64,000 bases of DNA from a virus, in IMG/VR virus record IMGVR_UViG_3300037245_001077, positions 32,001 through 96,000 of that record. The stretch is one strand, 5' to 3'. The position numbers were made by a program, and so were the translations under genes. The notes under the pieces were generated by a model. The model saw only the letters and a list, made by a program, of their open reading frames with translations. It did no database searches and was not told where the DNA came from. Shown piece after piece: positions 8,705-50,888 of the stretch. How positions within the stretch are numbered: the stretch's first letter is position 1; every line of letters starts with the position of its first letter.

Positions 8705-10619
8705 AGACTTCCTAGCTATTGGGTATATTGATCTTGACTTTACGGATAGCACCCGTCTCCTTTTGGGTAAGAACCTAGATAGCCTCGCAGCCGACGACAA
8801 TGGCGCAGGCAAATCCAGCATCGGAGAAGCTATCCGTTGGTGCCTCTATGGGGAGACGGTACGCTCTGCAATTGACAAATCACTTGACGTTCAGCATGTG
8901 ATCCGTAAGGGAACCAAGAAGGCATGGGTGACTCTTGAGGTTGAAGTGGATGGTGTCCTTTACGAGATCTATAGATCGAGGATGAAGAGTAAAGGCGAGT
9001 TCGAGGTGAGGCAACCAGGAGGAGTGGTATACAAGGCGCAGGCAGCGCAGGAAGCGTTAGTTGACCTTTTACCTATAGATGTGGTGCAGTTCGCCAACCT
9101 CGTACATCTCGACGGCTCATACCCTCGGCTCTTTGCGCCCAGCACAGACAGAGACCGTAAGGAGATCCTTGCTGACCTTGTTGACATCGCCATTACCCAG
9201 CAGATGCAGGAAGAAACGACCCAGAGGTTAAGCCCATTGATAGCTCGGGGAGTGTCATTACGGCACAAGATTGATATTCATGTTGCTGATATCGCACGAG
9301 CCAAGGATAAGCAAAAAACCCAACAAGAAGAGGGCAAGGAGTTTACCAAGAAAATCAAGGGTATGGAGGGGTATTTACTTGGTGCTGCGGCAGAGCAGAT
9401 GAGGTTAGAAGGAGAGCAGCTTCGTCTACACAGTGCGTTACAGCAGATGGAGGATGAGGCGGTAGTTGAGCTTGAGAAATTAAAAGATGAGTACAATGAA
9501 CTGGTGGATAAGGTGGCAGAGAACACCCTAGTACTGGAGGTTTGTACGGATTCTTACTTGATGTCTGATCTGGAAGAAGCTGAGGAGCAGCTTAATTCTA
9601 TACGTACTCAACGGGATATCCGAATTAGTAGAATTGGAGACATGCAACAATTACAGCAGTTGAGTAAATGTCCAACCTGTGGCCAGGACACCACGGAAGC
9701 GTTGGAAGCGGATATCCAGTCGCTCACGTCCCAGACAGAAAGGTTTAACGATGAGCTTGCAGGAATCTCAGATGCTATTGAAGGCATTACAGAAAAGCGG
9801 CAATCCAAAATTAGTAGGGCCAGGGATCGTCGCAACAGTCTCGAATCTGAGCGAAATGCAATCGACAAAGAAATCCAATCGCTGGTGGACGTTCCCGAAA
9901 GAAAAGAAACCTCACACCAGCTTACCGAAGTGAGGGCAGACCTCAAAGAAGCAGAGGGGCGAGTCTCGTCTCTCAAAATTAAAATCAACACTAAGAAGGC
10001 TTTGGTAGCACAACTCAAAGATCAATACCTAGATGAAGAGAAATGGATCAAGGATAAGCGTGAGTATCTGGCCTATGCAGAGGTAGAGCTTATCGACACG
10101 GATAAGAGAATAGAGCGCCTGAGTTTCTGGAAGAAGGGATTCGGGCCTAAAGGCGTGCCTAGCCTCTTCATCGAAACGGTGTTGCCTCAGATCTCTAAGC
10201 GGATCCAGAAGTATGCTGACATCCTCACTGGTGGGGATGTACTGGTGGATCTCAAGGCGTACAGTGAAACCAAATCCAATACAATCAAAGAGGCCATCCA
10301 GATCAGTGCAGTCAACACAAAGGGGGCTGCCGTCTACGGTGCTAACTCAACAGGAGAGCGTAACCGTATTGATTTAGCAGTAACGTTGGGTCTCATCGAC
10401 TTCTTCAAGGACACTGGAGCTTTCGAGAGCAACTTGCTGGTGTGTGATGAGATATTCGACGGGTTAGATGCCACGGGGGTAGAGCAGGCACTCATTGCTT
10501 TGGACAAGGCTGACATACCCTCAGTCATTGTTGTCTCACACCATGAGCACTTAAAGCCTTTATTCCCTGAGACTTTGTATGTTCAGAAGGAACATGGCAA
10601 AGCGGAACTAGTGGTATAA
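8679..10619 (+). CDS. sbcC: Rad50/SbcC (gp46-like) ATPase
   Basis: NGAGKSS, coiled coil with CPTCG zinc hook, STGE signature, DEIFDGLD, H-loop. Confidence 0.93.
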   Translation: MKFLKIKIKDFLAIGYIDLDFTDSTRLLLGKNLDSLAADDNGAGKSSIGEAIRWCLYGETVRSAIDKSLDVQHVIRKGTKKAWVTLEVEVDGVLYEIYRSRMKSKGEFEVRQPGGVVYKAQAAQEALVDLLPIDVVQFANLVHLDGSYPRLFAPSTDRDRKEILADLVDIAITQQMQEETTQRLSPLIARGVSLRHKIDIHVADIARAKDKQKTQQEEGKEFTKKIKGMEGYLLGAAAEQMRLEGEQLRLHSALQQMEDEAVVELEKLKDEYNELVDKVAENTLVLEVCTDSYLMSDLEEAEEQLNSIRTQRDIRISRIGDMQQLQQLSKCPTCGQDTTEALEADIQSLTSQTERFNDELAGISDAIEGITEKRQSKISRARDRRNSLESERNAIDKEIQSLVDVPERKETSHQLTEVRADLKEAEGRVSSLKIKINTKKALVAQLKDQYLDEEKWIKDKREYLAYAEVELIDTDKRIERLSFWKKGFGPKGVPSLFIETVLPQISKRIQKYADILTGGDVLVDLKAYSETKSNTIKEAIQISAVNTKGAAVYGANSTGERNRIDLAVTLGLIDFFKDTGAFESNLLVCDEIFDGLDATGVEQALIALDKADIPSVIVVSHHEHLKPLFPETLYVQKEHGKAELVV

Positions 10620-30700: not shown

Positions 30701-32033
30701 CGACAGGTAGCACAGAGGAGAAGGAAGACGATGAATAGACGAGGGTTCTTTGGGACGCTGGTGGGAGTCCTGCTAGGCTCTATGGTAGTCCCAGCAGCCG
30801 CTCAACAGTGGCAAGGCCCCGGTGGTATCAAGATACAGAAGAAGGCAGGCAAGTGGTACGTCACAGGCAACAGACACCGTATAGAGGATGTTGAGTGGGC
30901 TATAAGACATATCGATCAGGACTTGGCGTTGTCAGAGCGTAGACCCACTATAACTATTGAGGGTATTGAAATAGTTTACCCGAGGAGATAGCAATGGCCA
31001 AGAAAGCAGAGCACTGGGATGACAACTGGCGTATGAGTGAGTCATGCAGCAACTTTACTAAGGATGACATGAATGAGTTTGGGTACTGGGTAGAAGGGAT
31101 CATATCTACTAGGTATGGTTATGTGACTACTTACTCGCAGGAAGACCATACAGATATCCGTTTCATTTGGGACGGGCGCATGTATTCTCGTGGTTGGCAG
31201 AGGGAGTATAGCCAACAGTTCATAGTGACATTGGCCAAGCGGTTCGTGCGTGAGATCACTGGACATGAGCAGGTGGGATGATGCAGGAGAAATTAGACCC
31301 CGAGAAGAAGTTGGACGGCATACAGAAGATAGATTGGACTAACGAAGCAGAGCGGCCCCACAAGGGGCTGCTTAACATGTTACCCAAGTTCATGCGTAAC
31401 TGGAGTGCTCCCAAGGGTTACAACTACGATAGGGAGATGGCTCGTAGACGCAGGCAGATTGAGAGTGGCACTCTCAAGAAAGAGAATGGTTTGTATGACG
31501 GATAAACGAGAGTACTCACCAGGATGGGGTGATGGTAAAGAGGCGGTTATTGCCGATGATATCTTCAGGGCAGAGATAAACTACAACGGCGCTCACCCAC
31601 ATCTGCCTGGTGACTTCATACGGCGTAAGGTGGATGGGGAGTGGGTGCTTATCAAGGGGGAAAAGTTTGACAATCTAAGAGCGGCCATACGCTGGTTGGA
31701 AGAGTACTGGACGGGGTGTGCCCCATGGAAAGAGGATTTGGACGACTATCAGATCAGTGAGATGACTAGGCGCATAAATGCGCTTAGAAAGATGGTGGGG
31801 GTATGAAGGTTAAATTCGAGTTGAATGGTGAGACTTATGAGGTTGACCCTTGCCCCAATTGTGGTAGTGGTAATCTATTCTTTGATGCGGGTATGTTGGC
31901 AGGGACCATTAAGTGTATTGGTTGTGACTATCGGGTTGTACATGAGGATATCTTTGAGGCTATTATTTATTGGGGCGGTGGGAAAATGAAGGTATGCCCA
32001 AGGTGTAATGGATTAGGGAAAGTGGAAGAATGA
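27721..32033 (+). other. Array of small hypothetical ORFs (27721-28119, 28112-28570 secreted, 28567-29142, 29317-29529, 29529-29777, 30403-30738, 30731-30991 with Tat-like RRGFF signal, 30994-31281, 31803-32033)
   Basis: Coupled + strand ORFs with SD sites. Confidence 0.65.
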
Positions 32034-41092: not shown

Positions 41093-41122
41093 TTGACAAC
41101 TTCGATACTTAGGTGGTATCGT
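41093..41122 (+). promoter_or_regulatory. Sigma70-type promoter for tmRNA
   Basis: TTGACA-N18-TATCGT with an extended TG. Confidence 0.55.
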
Positions 41123-41944: not shown

Positions 41945-42815
41945 GATATGGCCACATGGGGTCATTAAGGAAACAGGGGAGTAATCCCCTGGAAGGGGTA
42001 ACGAGAGTGTTACGCTCGCCCACCTATCTTCGGGTAGGCCCATCCATGAGAATCGCGGGTAGCCCGAGCCACGGGTGGGTACGTGTGCCCTAACCTGAGG
42101 AGCAAGGTGATTGTACGGTGGTGCTAGATAAGGGACAAACCGGGTCTTCGGGCCACAAGGTAGCTCTTATCGATTCCTAGCAGGGATGCTAGGTAATCAT
42201 CGATCCAATTGTGAATCAGGCCACTCCTAAGCGATAGATACCTTAGTCCGAGGAAATGGCAAACCTAGGGCGGGGTAGCAGTACCATTGAGGTTTGGGCG
42301 GAATTCCCAAAAATCAAGAAGTACGGGTAAAGGGACAGCTAGTCTCGAATGCCAGGGCGCGTGTTGTATTTTGTGGCTCAAAAGGCTACGAAGCGATGGA
42401 CAGGGCACGAACCCAGTGACATTATCACCGTGAAATTCGCCTAATAGCAAGGCGTTTGGCCTTAGGACCAAAAGATGAGGGTGCAATTCCTTCATTTCAC
42501 TTCAAAACGATAAGGAAAGTCCCTGTCGGTCGCTAAGCGAAAGGGGCCTAAGCCTCTCCCCGCAAGGGAAGGGAGGCCACCGAAGCTCCCAAGGCTGAAA
42601 GTGGTCAATGTGGAAATGAAGACCTTGAGACGGCCATCTCAGGACGGACTGGAAACATCGAGTCGCGGAGCGATGACGAAGGAAATGCTACCTTCTTAAA
42701 AAAGCGGTCCTGGTCGAATACTGGAGAGATCCGGTGGATAAGTTGTTAACTGAAGGATGGAACCTTAGGGTACGGCAACAAAAGGTTGACCACAATAATG
42801 GGTAGTCTCACCATT
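41945..42815 (+). ncRNA. Large structured ncRNA, GOLLD-like (boundaries approximate)
   Basis: ~870 nt with no credible ORF, many tetraloop hairpins (UUCG, GCAA, GUAA), own promoter, next to tRNAs, internal tRNA-like domain; family assigned from recalled sequence features. Confidence 0.7.
42430..42504 (+). pseudogene. Degenerate tRNA-like element inside the large ncRNA
   Basis: GTGAAAT/ATTTCAC acceptor, D and T arms, 8-nt loop CCTTAGGA, ends TCA rather than CCA. Confidence 0.65.
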
Positions 42816-43070: not shown

Positions 43071-43223
43071 ATGACCCGCAACGCTTTGATCCAGGCTATT
43101 ATCGAGATGGTTACATCTTCTTTACCCAAGAAGATAACGTTGACCAAGAAGATTGGCAAGGATTTGTGGGTAACGGATACGAAGAGAATGCTCGCCCTTA
43201 TGAAGAAGAAGAGGAAGAAGTAA
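43071..43223 (+). CDS. Basic protein, MTREELIE family
   Basis: MTRNALIQAIIE N-terminus, Lys/Arg-rich. Confidence 0.65.
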   Translation: MTRNALIQAIIEMVTSSLPKKITLTKKIGKDLWVTDTKRMLALMKKKRKK

Positions 43224-46228: not shown

Positions 46229-46257
46229 TTGACAACGGTAACAAAAGATGCCATACT
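46229..46257 (+). promoter_or_regulatory. Sigma70-type promoter of tRNA operon 2
   Basis: TTGACA-N17-CATACT with an extended TG. Confidence 0.7.
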
Positions 46258-46266
46258 AAATCAGTA

Positions 46267-46326
46267 ATGAAGAATTTTCTATATACCCTCGTTGATTGTG
46301 TAGCCCACTTTGATAGTTGGCTTTAG
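46267..46326 (+). CDS. Leader peptide 2 (MKNFLYTLVDCVAHFDSWL) of tRNA operon 2
   Basis: 13 of 18 codons are F/L(CUN)/Y/V/D/C/A/H, the downstream tRNA set. Confidence 0.85.
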   Translation: MKNFLYTLVDCVAHFDSWL

Positions 46327-46462: not shown

Positions 46463-46474
46463 GTTCTTTGAAAA
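46463..46474 (+). promoter_or_regulatory. boxA antitermination site
   Basis: GTTCTTTGAAAA. Confidence 0.65.
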
Positions 46475-46566: not shown

Positions 46567-46577
46567 AAATATCGTGT

Positions 46578-46653
46578 GGGCTGTCATGTTCCAAGGGGGC
46601 GAGGAGCACTTGCAATGCACCTGTGGAGGGTTCGATTCCCTTGCGGTCCACCA
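46578..46653 (+). tRNA. tRNA-Ala(UGC)
   Basis: G3-U70, loop CT-TGC-AA; atypical D arm. Confidence 0.78.
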
Positions 46654-46657
46654 AGTT

Positions 46658-47192: not shown

Positions 47193-48068
47193 ATGACGGA
47201 TAGAAATTTAGATTATGACTATGCTGCAAAGCAACGAGATATTACTCGTGAGCAGTATGCTAAAGGAACATATATTTATGCTGGTTATAGTCCTGCAACA
47301 CCTTTAGTGTGGAATGTTGAGGATCAGCCGATTGGCTCAGGTGCTCCGGCAAACGTGTTTGACGCCTGGGGCGAGGACTTGGAGGTCCGGGCGATCCCTG
47401 TGGATGGGAAAGAGCCGCTGACGCCGTTCACCAAGGAGCTTCATGCAAAAACAGGGAACCCTGGATATCTCTATGGGCTGTACTTCACATTATTGCTCGA
47501 TGGTTTTGATATTGATTTGAATAATGGTAAATTCCGGGTTGAAATTGTGGCTCGGCATGTTGTCCCAGATCCAGAATTTCAGCCCGGTCAATACTTACAG
47601 CTTGGTGAGGACGACTATTACCCAGAATGGGATACGTGGCGCATGTTCAAAGCCGGGTTTCTTTCTGAAGAGTCCGGCGAAAGTGATGTTCAATCTTGGC
47701 ATTGGGAGTTTGGTGGTGAACTATATAATTCGTTCTATGACTACAAGGTAAACTGGGAGTTCGGAACACCAATTGTCGGATACACTATCCACCAGATCGA
47801 GGTGGATTTCCAAGCTGGCGTGTTCGAGCAACGCATCGTTGGTCATTGGGCAGGAGATCAAGGAGAGCAATCATCTTGGTGGGTTAAGGCTCCTCGCGCC
47901 GCTGAATTTCCGGCTGGAGAACAGTCAGCACAGACGCTCATATTATGGCTTCAAGATAAAAACAGCGGAGAGGCGATGGTTACTCAGCTTTGGCTTGGCC
48001 CAATTACTGACCCATTCCCAAATGGCGCGGTTTTGACATCGAATATCGGGTTTGGAAATAGTTCTTGA
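47193..48068 (+). CDS. Aromatic beta-rich protein, paralog of 52656 and 53515
   Basis: Shared C-terminal W-x-G-x3-D-x-F/W-P motif. Confidence 0.7.
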   Translation: MTDRNLDYDYAAKQRDITREQYAKGTYIYAGYSPATPLVWNVEDQPIGSGAPANVFDAWGEDLEVRAIPVDGKEPLTPFTKELHAKTGNPGYLYGLYFTLLLDGFDIDLNNGKFRVEIVARHVVPDPEFQPGQYLQLGEDDYYPEWDTWRMFKAGFLSEESGESDVQSWHWEFGGELYNSFYDYKVNWEFGTPIVGYTIHQIEVDFQAGVFEQRIVGHWAGDQGEQSSWWVKAPRAAEFPAGEQSAQTLILWLQDKNSGEAMVTQLWLGPITDPFPNGAVLTSNIGFGNSS

Positions 48069-48093
48069 CAAGCCCTTTATTGGGTGTTAGAGT
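48065..48093 (+). promoter_or_regulatory. Sigma70-type promoter of tRNA operon 3
   Basis: TTGACA-N17-TAGAGT with an extended TG. Confidence 0.7.
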
Positions 48094-48102
48094 GATTAAG
48101 TT

Positions 48103-48171
48103 ATGAAGAGATTATCCTCAAGGTTGTGGCAACAGAGCGGCTCGAATCCGAGTCGCCCAGGAGAGCTGTAA
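48103..48171 (+). CDS. Leader peptide 3 (MKRLSSRLWQQSGSNPSRPGEL) of tRNA operon 3
   Basis: 18 consecutive codons for R/L(UUR)/S/W/Q/G/N/P, the downstream tRNA set. Confidence 0.88.
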   Translation: MKRLSSRLWQQSGSNPSRPGEL

Positions 48172-48172
48172 C

Positions 48173-48236
48173 TAAGGGGTAAAGATGCCAATTCGCCCGT
48201 TCCGTTCTTACCCCCTAGTACAGTAGGGGGTTTTTT
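48173..48236 (+). terminator. Attenuator 3
   Basis: Antiterminator GGGGTAA/TTACCCC overlaps terminator ACCCCCTA-GTACAG-TAGGGGGT-T5. Confidence 0.85.
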
Positions 48237-48246
48237 ATTGATCTAA

Positions 48247-48258
48247 GTTCTTTGAAAA
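48247..48258 (+). promoter_or_regulatory. boxA antitermination site
   Basis: GTTCTTTGAAAA, identical to 46463. Confidence 0.65.
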
Positions 48259-48271
48259 CAAAAAGTTATGT

Positions 48272-48348
48272 CCGAGAATGGCGCAGTTTGGCAGCGCACT
48301 TGGTTTGGGACCAAGGTGTCGAAGGTTCAAATCCTTCTTCTCGGACCA
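48272..48348 (+). tRNA. tRNA-Pro(UGG)
   Basis: CTTGG-TTTGGGA-CCAAG. Confidence 0.92.
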
Positions 48349-48349
48349 T

Positions 48350-48434
48350 GGAAGGTACCGTCTATGGAGACAAGCGGTTTTGAACACCGTAGGCACGTGT
48401 AAGCGCGGGGGTTCGATTCCTCTACCTTCCTCCA
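48350..48434 (+). tRNA. tRNA-Ser(UGA)
   Basis: Loop TT-TGA-AC, long variable arm. Confidence 0.85.
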
Positions 48435-48444
48435 AGTTGTGTGT

Positions 48445-48519
48445 TCGGGCATGGTGTTAGTGGTAGCATACGAGGTTTCCACCCTCTGGGGCCGGGTTCG
48501 AGTCCTGGTGCCCGAACCA
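48445..48519 (+). tRNA. tRNA-Gly(UCC)
   Basis: Loop TT-TCC-AC, CCA. Confidence 0.85.
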
Positions 48520-48529
48520 AAATTTATGT

Positions 48530-48603
48530 AGGGGTATAGTGAAATGGTATCACGGCAGATTCCAGACCTGCTTTTCCGGGTTCAAATCCTGGTACCTCTG
48601 CCA
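48530..48603 (+). tRNA. tRNA-Trp(CCA)
   Basis: Loop TT-CCA-GA, G73. Confidence 0.88.
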
Positions 48604-48609
48604 AAGATT

Positions 48610-48698
48610 GGAAGGGTGGCTGAGTGGTAACAGCGCCGGGTTGCTAACCCGAGGCCGCGCTTCGGCGTGCGAGGGTTCGATCCCCTCTCCTTCCTCCA
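48610..48698 (+). tRNA. tRNA-Ser(GCU)
   Basis: Loop TT-GCT-AA, long variable arm. Confidence 0.9.
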
Positions 48699-48703
48699 AG
48701 TGT

Positions 48704-48816
48704 TGAACGGTGTGGCGTGGCAGCGTCAGGTTTTCCGTTAAGGAGATCATCCCTCCACTGCCTAATCGGAGAATGATGGGAGCTGGGTGGGGAATCCAGC
48801 CACCGTTCACTTTTTT
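48704..48816 (+). ncRNA. Unidentified structured RNA inside tRNA operon 3
   Basis: Closing stem TGAACGGTG/CACCGTTCA, internal hairpins, T6 tail; not a cloverleaf. Confidence 0.5.
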
Positions 48817-48818
48817 GA

Positions 48819-48895
48819 GGCCCTGTAGCTCAGCGAACAGAGCATATGGCTACGAACCATAGTTGTCGGGGGTTTGAATCCCTCCAGGGCTTCCA
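48819..48895 (+). tRNA. tRNA-Arg(ACG)
   Basis: TATGG-CTACGAA-CCATA. Confidence 0.88.
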
Positions 48896-48898
48896 TTT

Positions 48899-48974
48899 GC
48901 ACCCGTGGTCTAATGGCAAAGGCACTGCGTTTCTACCGCAGCAGATGTGGGTTCGACTCCTACCGGGTGTTCCA
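48899..48974 (+). tRNA. tRNA-Arg(UCU)
   Basis: CTGCG-TTTCTAC-CGCAG. Confidence 0.88.
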
Positions 48975-48984
48975 AAACTTATTC

Positions 48985-49063
48985 GGCACGGTAGCTTAGC
49001 ATGGCCTAAAGCAGTAGTTTGTTAAACTAATGATCGTAGGTTCAAATCCTACCTGTGCCGCCA
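48985..49063 (+). tRNA. tRNA-Asn(GUU)
   Basis: Loop TT-GTT-AA, G73. Confidence 0.88.
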
Positions 49064-49069
49064 AATTTT

Positions 49070-49156
49070 GCTGGAGTGGCTGGAATTGGTATACGCAGGG
49101 GACTTAAAATCCCTGGCCGAAAGGTCGTGTGGGTTCGACTCCCACCTCCAGCACCA
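49070..49156 (+). tRNA. tRNA-Leu(UAA)
   Basis: Loop CT-TAA-AA, long variable arm. Confidence 0.92.
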
Positions 49157-49161
49157 GCTAT

Positions 49162-49238
49162 GCCGCTCTGGGCCAATTGGTAGAGTCGGGGGTCTCAAAA
49201 GCCCTTTGTTCCGAGTTCGAATCTCGGGGGCGGCACCA
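49162..49238 (+). tRNA. tRNA-Leu(CAA), short variable loop
   Basis: Loop CT-CAA-AA, A73, 5-nt variable loop. Confidence 0.82.
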
Positions 49239-49241
49239 TTT

Positions 49242-49317
49242 AGCGGAGTAGCTCAATTGGTAGAGCACTGGACTCTGAATTCAGTTGTTGTAGGTTCAAA
49301 CCCTACCTCCGCTGCCA
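49242..49317 (+). tRNA. tRNA-Gln(CUG)
   Basis: Loop CT-CTG-AA. Confidence 0.88.
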
Positions 49318-49392
49318 TTTTGATTGCAGAAACTGACACTTTTTGGTAGGTTACGCGAATGAAAAGCACTGTTTGTGGTCATAATGACTACT

Positions 49393-49468
49393 AGGGGAGT
49401 AGCTCAATTGGTGGAGCAACAGGCTTTGAACCTGTTGGATGTGAGTTCGAACCTCACCTCCCCTTCCA
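49393..49468 (+). tRNA. tRNA-Gln(UUG)
   Basis: ACAGG-CTTTGAA-CCTGT. Confidence 0.88.
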
Positions 49469-50197: not shown

Positions 50198-50500
50198 ATG
50201 CCCAAGTATAAACGTTATGGGTATGTGGTGGTGGAAAGGTTCTCAAAGCCTTTCGGATTAGTGGCATGTACAAATGTTGGCTTTCACCTTAATCCCCAAA
50301 AAGCGCAGGAACAGGTTGATGCTATAATCGAGTCCGCTGGAGAGGGTAAAGTCGTTGCAGATGAAACAGTTACAGGCAAAGACGATTTTGTCCCCTCTAT
50401 CCGTCGTCATGTCTTAATTGAATACCCTGGTCACGAGACTCTCCAGGTTCTCATCCAGCGATGGTATGTGGAGGTTGGGAGAGATCGCCATGGGGGATAG
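50198..50500 (+). CDS. Hypothetical protein
   Basis: GGAG SD. Confidence 0.65.
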   Translation: MPKYKRYGYVVVERFSKPFGLVACTNVGFHLNPQKAQEQVDAIIESAGEGKVVADETVTGKDDFVPSIRRHVLIEYPGHETLQVLIQRWYVEVGRDRHGG

Positions 50501-50888
50501 CTATTATGAGAGTGCGCTGTTACGTCTTCGAAGGGTAGCTGCCTACTTGTCCTTGCGGTATGGCGACGTTGTCAAACACAAAGGTCTTACCCCAGTTCAG
50601 TATGAGGTTTTACTCTACGTGGATTCGTGCTTTCCCTTTTGTTCGGTGTCTGAAGTAGCGCAATTTATGGTGGTAGATAAGTCCACCTCGTCACGGGTGC
50701 TACGTGGGATCGAAGGAAAGGGACTCATACGTATTGTTCACGATACCGAAGATCGTAGAAAACGCCAAGTCATATTGACGAATGAAGGAACAGGCGTTGT
50801 GGACGATTGTCGTAAAGCGTGGATGGTGGTTGAGAAGGATGTTAGGACTAAATACGACGATGCCATTGAGCATCTGGAAATCACTTAG
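50490..50888 (+). CDS. MarR-family transcriptional regulator
   Basis: GLTPVQYEVL...VDKSTSSRVLRGIEGKGLI...EDRRKRQVILTNEG. Confidence 0.9.
   Translation: MGDSYYESALLRLRRVAAYLSLRYGDVVKHKGLTPVQYEVLLYVDSCFPFCSVSEVAQFMVVDKSTSSRVLRGIEGKGLIRIVHDTEDRRKRQVILTNEGTGVVDDCRKAWMVVEKDVRTKYDDAIEHLEIT

Follow-up and report, generated by a model that had tools for sequence, protein, structure and literature searches.

A candidate leader-peptide attenuator with a codon checklist ahead of a twelve-tRNA operon in a phage genome

We analysed a stretch of 64,000 nucleotides (nt; hereafter the window, whose coordinates are used throughout) covering positions 32,001 to 96,000 of the 176.5-kb IMG/VR virus record IMGVR_UViG_3300037245_001077, and focus here on the leader region that lies in the 200 nt before the last block of its RNA island, an operon of 12 tRNA genes at 48272-49468. 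This leader carries a promoter, a short open reading frame (ORF) with a run of 18 different codons that samples all 12 downstream tRNAs, and an intrinsic terminator whose 5' arm can pair alternatively with the end of the ORF. From these features, and from their conservation in seven homologous units, we consider it probable that the unit is a ribosome-mediated leader-peptide transcription attenuator that gates the operon by feedback on tRNA supply. An earlier note, made from the letters of the DNA alone, had proposed such an attenuator; every sequence feature that it named is present, and the analysis supports its interpretation.

The window phage encodes T4-like replication genes (DNA polymerase, a gp32-like protein, UvsX and gp46/47-like proteins), and none of the cultured phages is close to it, DNA similarity to them being confined to tRNAs and their UvsX proteins being at most 32% identical. 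Its RNA island (41.0-49.5 kb) comprises 27 tRNAs, a transfer-messenger RNA (tmRNA) and a GOLLD RNA, as annotated with ARAGORN and Rfam, and contains three leaders, each ahead of its own tRNA block. The one studied here is the third, and its parts and the genes that follow it are:

48065-48093, + strand: sigma-70-type promoter P2 (TTGACA, 17 nt, TAGAGT, with TG upstream), from a consensus scan
48103-48171, + strand: leader ORF, ATG plus 21 further sense codons plus TAA (22 sense codons), kept in all homologs
48109-48162, + strand: run of 18 non-repeated codons, starting at the third codon of the ORF, all in boxes of the 12 downstream tRNAs
48272-48698, + strand: tRNA genes Pro-UGG, Ser-UGA, Gly-UCC, Trp-CCA and Ser-GCU (ARAGORN, Rfam)
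48819-49468, + strand: tRNA genes Arg-ACG, Arg-UCU, Asn-GUU, Leu-UAA, Leu-CAA and Gln-CUG, a 75-nt spacer, and Gln-UUG (ARAGORN, Rfam)

A codon run matched to the adjacent tRNA genes

The reading of the ORF and of its 18-codon run in the earlier note is exact, and all 18 codons are indeed different. The claim that they are served by the 12 downstream tRNAs holds as well: all 18 fall into the corresponding codon boxes and none of the 12 tRNAs goes without a codon in the run, while the non-matching sense codons of the ORF are its second and its last two (GAG and CTG). Under strict standard wobble, the downstream anticodons read 16 of the 18. When the whole genome was scanned in six frames, the run was the sole window with 18 matches among 352,960 windows of 18 codons, and among 2,658 short ORFs (12-45 codons) the leader ORF alone had 18 matches and alone sampled 12 of 12 tRNAs. 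In composition-preserving shuffles of the 54 nt of the run (n = 100,000), none reached 18/18 (the maximum was 16) and a single one sampled all 12 tRNAs. The match is also specific to the neighbouring genes, as 18/21 codons of the leader match its own tRNA cluster versus 2/21 and 1/21 for the other two clusters, and the pattern is reciprocal across the island, where the three leaders match their own blocks at 10/12, 12/18 and 18/21 codons and the other blocks at no more than 3. The codon match of the run is beyond chance and composition.

Short ORFs are plentiful in this genome, and it could be argued that an ordinary promoter and the terminator of the upstream gene simply happen to enclose one of them. 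Against this stand the uniqueness of the leader ORF among all ORFs and windows scanned, the failure of any shuffle to equal it, the conservation of the ORF with the tRNA operon and not with the upstream gene, and the recurrence of the pattern at the two other leaders, and we regard an origin by chance as scarcely credible.

Homologous units and the type of constraint

A protein of 127 amino acids (aa), whose gene lies shortly after the operon, has eight metagenomic relatives, one of which (54% identity) leads to L011, a 17.8-kb contig that was reached independently of the run sequence. L011 carries the same 12 tRNAs in the same order, together with the preceding tRNA block, and has a promoter-ORF-terminator unit before its tRNA-Pro. 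Six more contigs (L014-L019), found by a scan with a 23-mer core common to the window and L011, continue downstream with tRNA-Pro and the same onward tRNA order. The comparison set thus consists of eight units, the window and seven homologs, of five distinct types; contigs P0004, P0005, P0008 and P0009 add nothing to it, as they either end short of the leader or come without nucleotide sequence. The genes upstream of the leader unit vary among the contigs of the comparison set, and the unit therefore belongs with the tRNA operon.

The leader ORF is open in all eight units, and its internal insertions and deletions are all multiples of three (+6, -3, a -3/+3 pair, and +3). Codons that are newly present in the run (AGG, AGA, AAC, CCT and TCA) all lie in cognate boxes. 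One lineage reorders the run, with TCA AGG replaced by CCT and an extra TCA after TGG, and other units show AGA/AGG swaps, a change of AGC to AAC, or the loss of TTG. The part that follows the run is free in both sequence and length, with the ORF always reaching or passing a G-run downstream. The earlier note had expected homologous leaders to conserve the codon set while order and peptide drift, and had named the loss of the ORF or of the codon set as grounds against its reading: both are conserved in the seven homologs, whereas the freedom of order and peptide is borne out only in part, as most of the run is nucleotide-invariant and the peptide is therefore conserved too. In the second leader of the island, by comparison, residues are changed in L011 and the codons are still cognate-rich.

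The window and L011 share 94.4% of the run (51/54 nt) and 15 of its 18 codons, compared to an identity of 76.5% for the 12 tRNAs and 61% for the rest of the leader, and to a neighbouring gene in which the same codon is used at 28 of 67 conserved residues (42%). This makes the run the most tightly constrained sequence in the operon, and the constraint acts on its nucleotides and not merely on the peptide. This is better explained by a codon constraint combined with an RNA-pairing constraint than by protein-level selection; with both constraints, each base of the run would be part both of a required codon and of a required helix.

These data also bear on the idea that the unit is an independent micro-gene, with its own promoter and terminator and a functional peptide of 22-32 residues. 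In that case the codon match would be incidental, and the tRNAs would owe their transcription to a different promoter or to read-through that is constitutive. The peptide core is conserved in all homologs, and three of them (L019 and L015/L016) carry extra DNA between the leader terminator and tRNA-Pro, which in L019 includes a promoter-like site. Selection on a peptide, though, predicts synonymous drift like that of the neighbouring gene and not 15 of 18 identical codons; moreover, the C-terminal part and the position of the stop codon vary freely, the match is only to the adjacent tRNA cluster and not to the other 15 tRNAs of the phage, and the end of the ORF overlaps an antiterminator in every homolog. 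We therefore judge a micro-gene to be very unlikely.

In L019, where the unit lies on the minus strand, the extra DNA encodes an ORF with Cys pairs and has its own TTGACA promoter-like site. It is possibly an insertion of the homing-endonuclease type, and transcription from that site could bypass the attenuator.

The -35 hexamer of P2 overlaps the stop codon of an upstream ORF of 291 aa and is invariant in all eight units despite their differing upstream genes. The leader ATG lies 9 nt past the -10 hexamer, so that the predicted mRNA is leaderless or nearly so. Counted from the -35 hexamer, the ATG comes at exactly 38 nt in five of the eight units, and the remaining three have a longer 5' untranslated region (UTR) with a Shine-Dalgarno sequence at the right distance; by their arrangement, the two forms seem to be alternative ways of arriving at one kind of start. 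The second leader of the island (46229-46267) has the same 38-nt spacing, as does its counterpart in L011 (approximately 2502-2540, counted from the sequence), which suggests that leaders 2 and 3 have a leaderless-type start design in common. A further candidate promoter upstream of P2 was found by the consensus scan:

48033-48062, + strand: candidate upstream promoter P1 (TTGACA, 18 nt, AATAGT), 10/12 matches to the consensus

It would leave a 5' UTR of about 35 nt; the evidence for it is weak because it was not found in the homologs.

Searches from other points of the genome and in other collections recovered few relatives. In viral contigs, neither the upstream 291-aa protein nor the downstream 127-aa protein had a match, and the former has no syntenic relatives, its only long homologous contig being a structural module without tRNAs. 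An 803-aa protein has one relative, on a 38-kb fragment without a tRNA island, and of two UvsX relatives (58% identity) one is without tRNAs and the other has 4 tRNAs and no leader ORF. The viral and genome contigs contain no match to the 23-mer, to a third-position-degenerate pattern that would catch synonymous variants, or to the pattern of the tRNA-Pro 3' end, and the sole match there to a 22-mer of the tRNA-Arg is in an unrelated 318-kb phage. That phage contig (L024) has a short ORF on its minus strand (9277-9330), preceded by a Shine-Dalgarno sequence and containing six AAA codons, which runs straight into two tandem tRNA-Lys(UUU) genes with no terminator seen.

Alternative RNA structures and the proposed switch

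Folding of the leader, including folds of the growing transcript, yields the following elements; with the promoter and the ORF before them, they complete the ordered series of an attenuator: a promoter, an ORF, a protector, an antiterminator that overlaps the end of the ORF, and a terminator with T6.

48112-48130, + strand: region 1, 5' strand of the protector (anti-antiterminator), from folds of the growing transcript
48137-48156, + strand: apical 8-bp hairpin within the ORF, with the tetraloop AATC, from folding; a single occurrence in the genome
48165-48182, + strand: region 2, 5' arm of the antiterminator, comprising the last sense codon, the stop codon and the G-run, from folding
48208-48223, + strand: region 3, 3' arm of the antiterminator, corresponding to the terminator 5' arm plus loop, from folding
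48210-48236, + strand: intrinsic terminator, an 8-bp stem with a 6-nt loop (48210-48231) followed by T6, -14.5 kcal/mol

The protector, in which 48112-48118 pairs with 48176-48182 and 48122-48130 with 48165-48173, is the first structure to form in the growing-transcript folds and has an equivalent in every homolog (-10 to -21 kcal/mol). The antiterminator has 15 bp, and the duplex of regions 2 and 3 is predicted thermodynamically at -19.6 kcal/mol (-18 to -22 kcal/mol in the homologs). It includes the pairing that the earlier note had pointed out between GGGGTAA and TTACCCC: 48176-48182 complements 48208-48214, which lies in the 5' arm of the terminator. In the terminator, 88.9% of cells across the eight units are paired, and one pair varies between GC, CG and AU. 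A swapped-arm duplex test for covariation in the antiterminator gave no discrimination, the energy being dominated by the G-run and C-run. All three pairings (terminator, antiterminator and protector) are kept in all units despite their sequence differences.

The effect of a ribosome was modelled by masking a footprint of 28 nt and letting the transcript fold as far as the loop of the terminator. With the A site on any codon from 2 to 20, the model gives the antiterminator; on the final three codons, the non-cognate GAG and CTG and the stop TAA, it no longer does. In L016, L014, L018 and L017 the predicted antiterminator disappears one codon after the run has ended. As for the stop codon, it lies within 4 nt of the G-run, or the last codons themselves contain the G-run, in the window, L015/L016, L017 and L019.

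We infer that the ORF is translated, that termination downstream of it is regulated, and that the physiological signal is the speed at which the run is decoded. Transcription would start from P2 and a ribosome would initiate on the promoter-proximal AUG. When the 18 test codons are decoded fast, the ribosome would arrive at the last codons or the stop and cover region 2, the arm with the G-run, the terminator would form, and RNA polymerase would halt ahead of tRNA-Pro. A shortage, lack of charging or cleavage of any one of the 12 tRNA species would make the ribosome linger within the run and keep region 1 off region 2, which could then pair with the 5' arm of the terminator; with this arm captured, the polymerase would read through and the tRNAs would be made. 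Because the product tRNAs would speed up their own sensor, the loop would act as negative feedback on decoding capacity. More broadly, we lean, if only slightly, towards the view that phages run self-regulating tRNA sub-operons, with one checklist mini-gene per block, that are switched on only when one species becomes limiting, and that this decoding-speed feedback would double as a sensor for the depletion of host tRNAs or their cleavage by anticodon nucleases.

Several observations weigh against the attenuator. 1) In five of the eight units translation would have to begin by leaderless or near-leaderless initiation, as they have no Shine-Dalgarno sequence. 2) Two codons of the run, TCC and GGC, are unread under strict wobble; to cover them, the U34 tRNAs Ser-UGA and Gly-UCC would have to read all four codons of their boxes. 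3) There are only one or two test codons per tRNA, so that a single slow codon must delay the ribosome enough. 4) The near-total invariance of the run at the nucleotide level may stem from some role of the RNA or DNA besides the sampling of codons, and it is partly a matter of ascertainment in six of the seven homologs, which were selected by 23 nt of the run; the invariance of this 23-nt part therefore rests mainly on L011. 5) The leader ignores small changes in the anticodons of the operon, such as a Ser-CGA in L015/L016, an Arg-UCG in L018 and the lack of Gln-CUG in L017/L018. 6) The ribosome-free minimum-energy fold is the antiterminator in four of the seven homologs, and the untranslated default therefore depends on kinetics. 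7) In L014, L018 and L011 the stop codon is 13-14 nt beyond the G-run, and a ribosome waiting there would cover the G-run only partly.

Some of these points are shared by an explanation in which the ORF is not translated and the conserved 130-nt structure acts by itself, be it as a riboswitch-like or factor-binding leader or as an element for the processing or stability of the tRNA precursor. It would account for a run that is nucleotide-invariant beyond the needs of codon choice and much of which is base-paired, for the absence of a Shine-Dalgarno sequence in five units, and for frames +1 and +2, which are also largely open across this short stretch. What structure or composition leaves unexplained is the 18/18 codon match and the 12/12 tRNA coverage; in addition, insertions and deletions are in frame, starts are kept with either the fixed promoter geometry or a Shine-Dalgarno sequence, and the leader has no match to an Rfam family, a T-box or a tRNA-like element even at E <= 10. 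Taken together, an RNA-only leader appears unlikely to us. The leader was also considered as a degenerate tRNA, given the resemblance of GGCTCGAATCC to a T-arm, and this was rejected, as there is no ARAGORN call and no Rfam tRNA match at E <= 10.

The apical hairpin invites yet another explanation, namely that its invariant 20-bp inverted repeat (48137-48156) is a DNA operator bound by a regulator, for example the MarR-family protein encoded downstream, which would act as a transcription roadblock. The repeat is near-palindromic as DNA. Over its arm 48139-48156 no homolog shows a change, and this holds for L011, which was found independently; position 48137 is G, or A in four homologs, which thereby lose the closing pair. 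The MarR gene itself (50466-50888) lies about 1 kb downstream of the tRNA island and is syntenic with it in every relative found (L011, L012 and L020-L022). The repeat, on the other hand, has no second copy in the genome and is found in neither of the other leaders, and an operator would leave the codon match, the conservation of the ORF and the antiterminator unexplained, so that we hold it to be highly improbable. Within the attenuator that we favour, the hairpin is possibly an RNA polymerase pause hairpin.

Relation to known systems and further features of the island

Multivalent attenuators are known from enterobacterial amino-acid operons, where the thrL leader responds to Thr and Ile and the ilvGMEDA leader to Leu, Val and Ile, the archetype of the class being trpL. 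The phage unit resembles these in its promoter-proximal short ORF, in the control codons in region 1, in the terminator before the first gene, and in the mutually exclusive 1:2, 2:3 and 3:4 pairings; in the window and four of the homologs, though not in L014, L018 and L011, the stop codon is also so placed that a finishing ribosome would mask region 2 in full. With thrL and ilvGMEDA it would also share the sensing of more than one amino acid. It differs in that its output consists of tRNA genes instead of biosynthetic enzymes, so that the sensed molecule would be the operon's own product, and in that its run covers eight amino acids and 12 tRNA species with no codon repeated, unlike the one-codon runs of the enterobacterial leaders. 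Further differences are the leaderless-type start geometry of most phage copies and the lack of any sequence or Rfam relationship. Mechanistically, the unit would work like thrL or ilvL, set apart by its tRNA-gene output and its checklist design.

In E. coli, the pheM leader of the pheST operon for phenylalanyl-tRNA synthetase brings about leader-peptide attenuation through the decoding speed of its cognate codons, and thus likewise controls a component of the translation apparatus; in contrast to the phage unit, which would sense the supply of tRNA bodies, it regulates a host protein gene and senses the charging of a single amino acid's tRNA. T-box riboswitches, in turn, couple tRNA status to the choice between terminator and antiterminator ahead of translation-related genes, as we propose for the phage leader, but do so by direct binding of the uncharged tRNA via a specifier codon and the T-box sequence, with no ORF, and the phage leader is much shorter. 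Rfam scans of the leader returned no T-box match at E <= 0.1 or E <= 10, and for the leader families of Rfam (His, Thr, Leu, Trp and others) only terminator-like chance matches far below the gathering scores.

Full-text literature searches turned up no case in which tRNA genes, of phages or otherwise, are controlled by a leader peptide or an attenuator, and the matching of tRNA gene expression to need is not addressed in the literature searched. The reasons for which phages carry tRNA genes, and the ways in which these are deployed, have been debated for about 50 years (PMC10264068), and the full text of that work on phage tRNAs mentions neither attenuators and leaders nor promoters and terminators. 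Two recent studies report that phage tRNAs rescue infection from tRNA-targeting host defences (PMC11555353, PMC11464382). The rationale supplied by these three works, in which the phage makes good the loss or cleavage of host tRNAs during infection, is the one that would apply here; in their titles and abstracts, PMC11555353 and PMC11464382 deal with tRNA function, not with the regulation of tRNA genes. If true, our interpretation would make this leader the first attenuator known to control tRNA genes and a natural multiplex sensor for 12 tRNA species in 54 nt, and would tie phage counter-measures directly, and in a testable way, to the depletion of tRNAs. For synthetic biology, it would offer a compact part that reads out codon-specific decoding capacity.

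Two further elements lie within or directly before the operon:

48248-48258, + strand: spacer motif TTCTTTGAAAA, between the terminator and tRNA-Pro, conserved in the homologs
48699-48818, + strand: intra-operon insert of 120 nt between tRNA-Ser(GCU) and tRNA-Arg(ACG), with a long closing stem and then T6

The fold of the insert is not significant (z = -1.44), and in L011 and L014 the Ser(GCU)/Arg(ACG) junction is without it. The motif TTCTTTGAAAA, 7-13 nt ahead of the tRNA 5' end, has a second site after tRNA-Asp (46464-46474) and follows the leader terminator in the homologs too, either exact or with one or two changes. As there are just 3 exact copies in 64 kb, we rejected it as a general phage promoter; it may serve for processing or for binding.

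In the rest of the island, the phage tmRNA (41196-41536), with the tag peptide DEFEQLPLAA, lies after tRNA-Ile(UAU), with a promoter-like site at 41093 in the interval between the two. The GOLLD RNA, located between the tmRNA and tRNA-Met, matches its Rfam model at 42354-42814 (161.5 bits, above the gathering score), although the structured RNA probably begins at about 41950, and it holds a tRNA-like element at 42430-42501. Interleaved with the tRNA blocks are six paralogous small basic proteins (ORF starts at 43071, 43225, 44366, 44611, 44844 and 45953), which have a common N-terminus, MTR-E/D/N-E/K/A-hydrophobic-I/T-E/Q-A/D-I; the 366-aa member has no Pfam match. Finally, at approximately 46570-46657, where L011 has a tRNA-Ala(UGC), the window has a T-arm-like stretch ending in CCA that is called by neither ARAGORN nor Rfam and may be a decayed or atypical tRNA-Ala.

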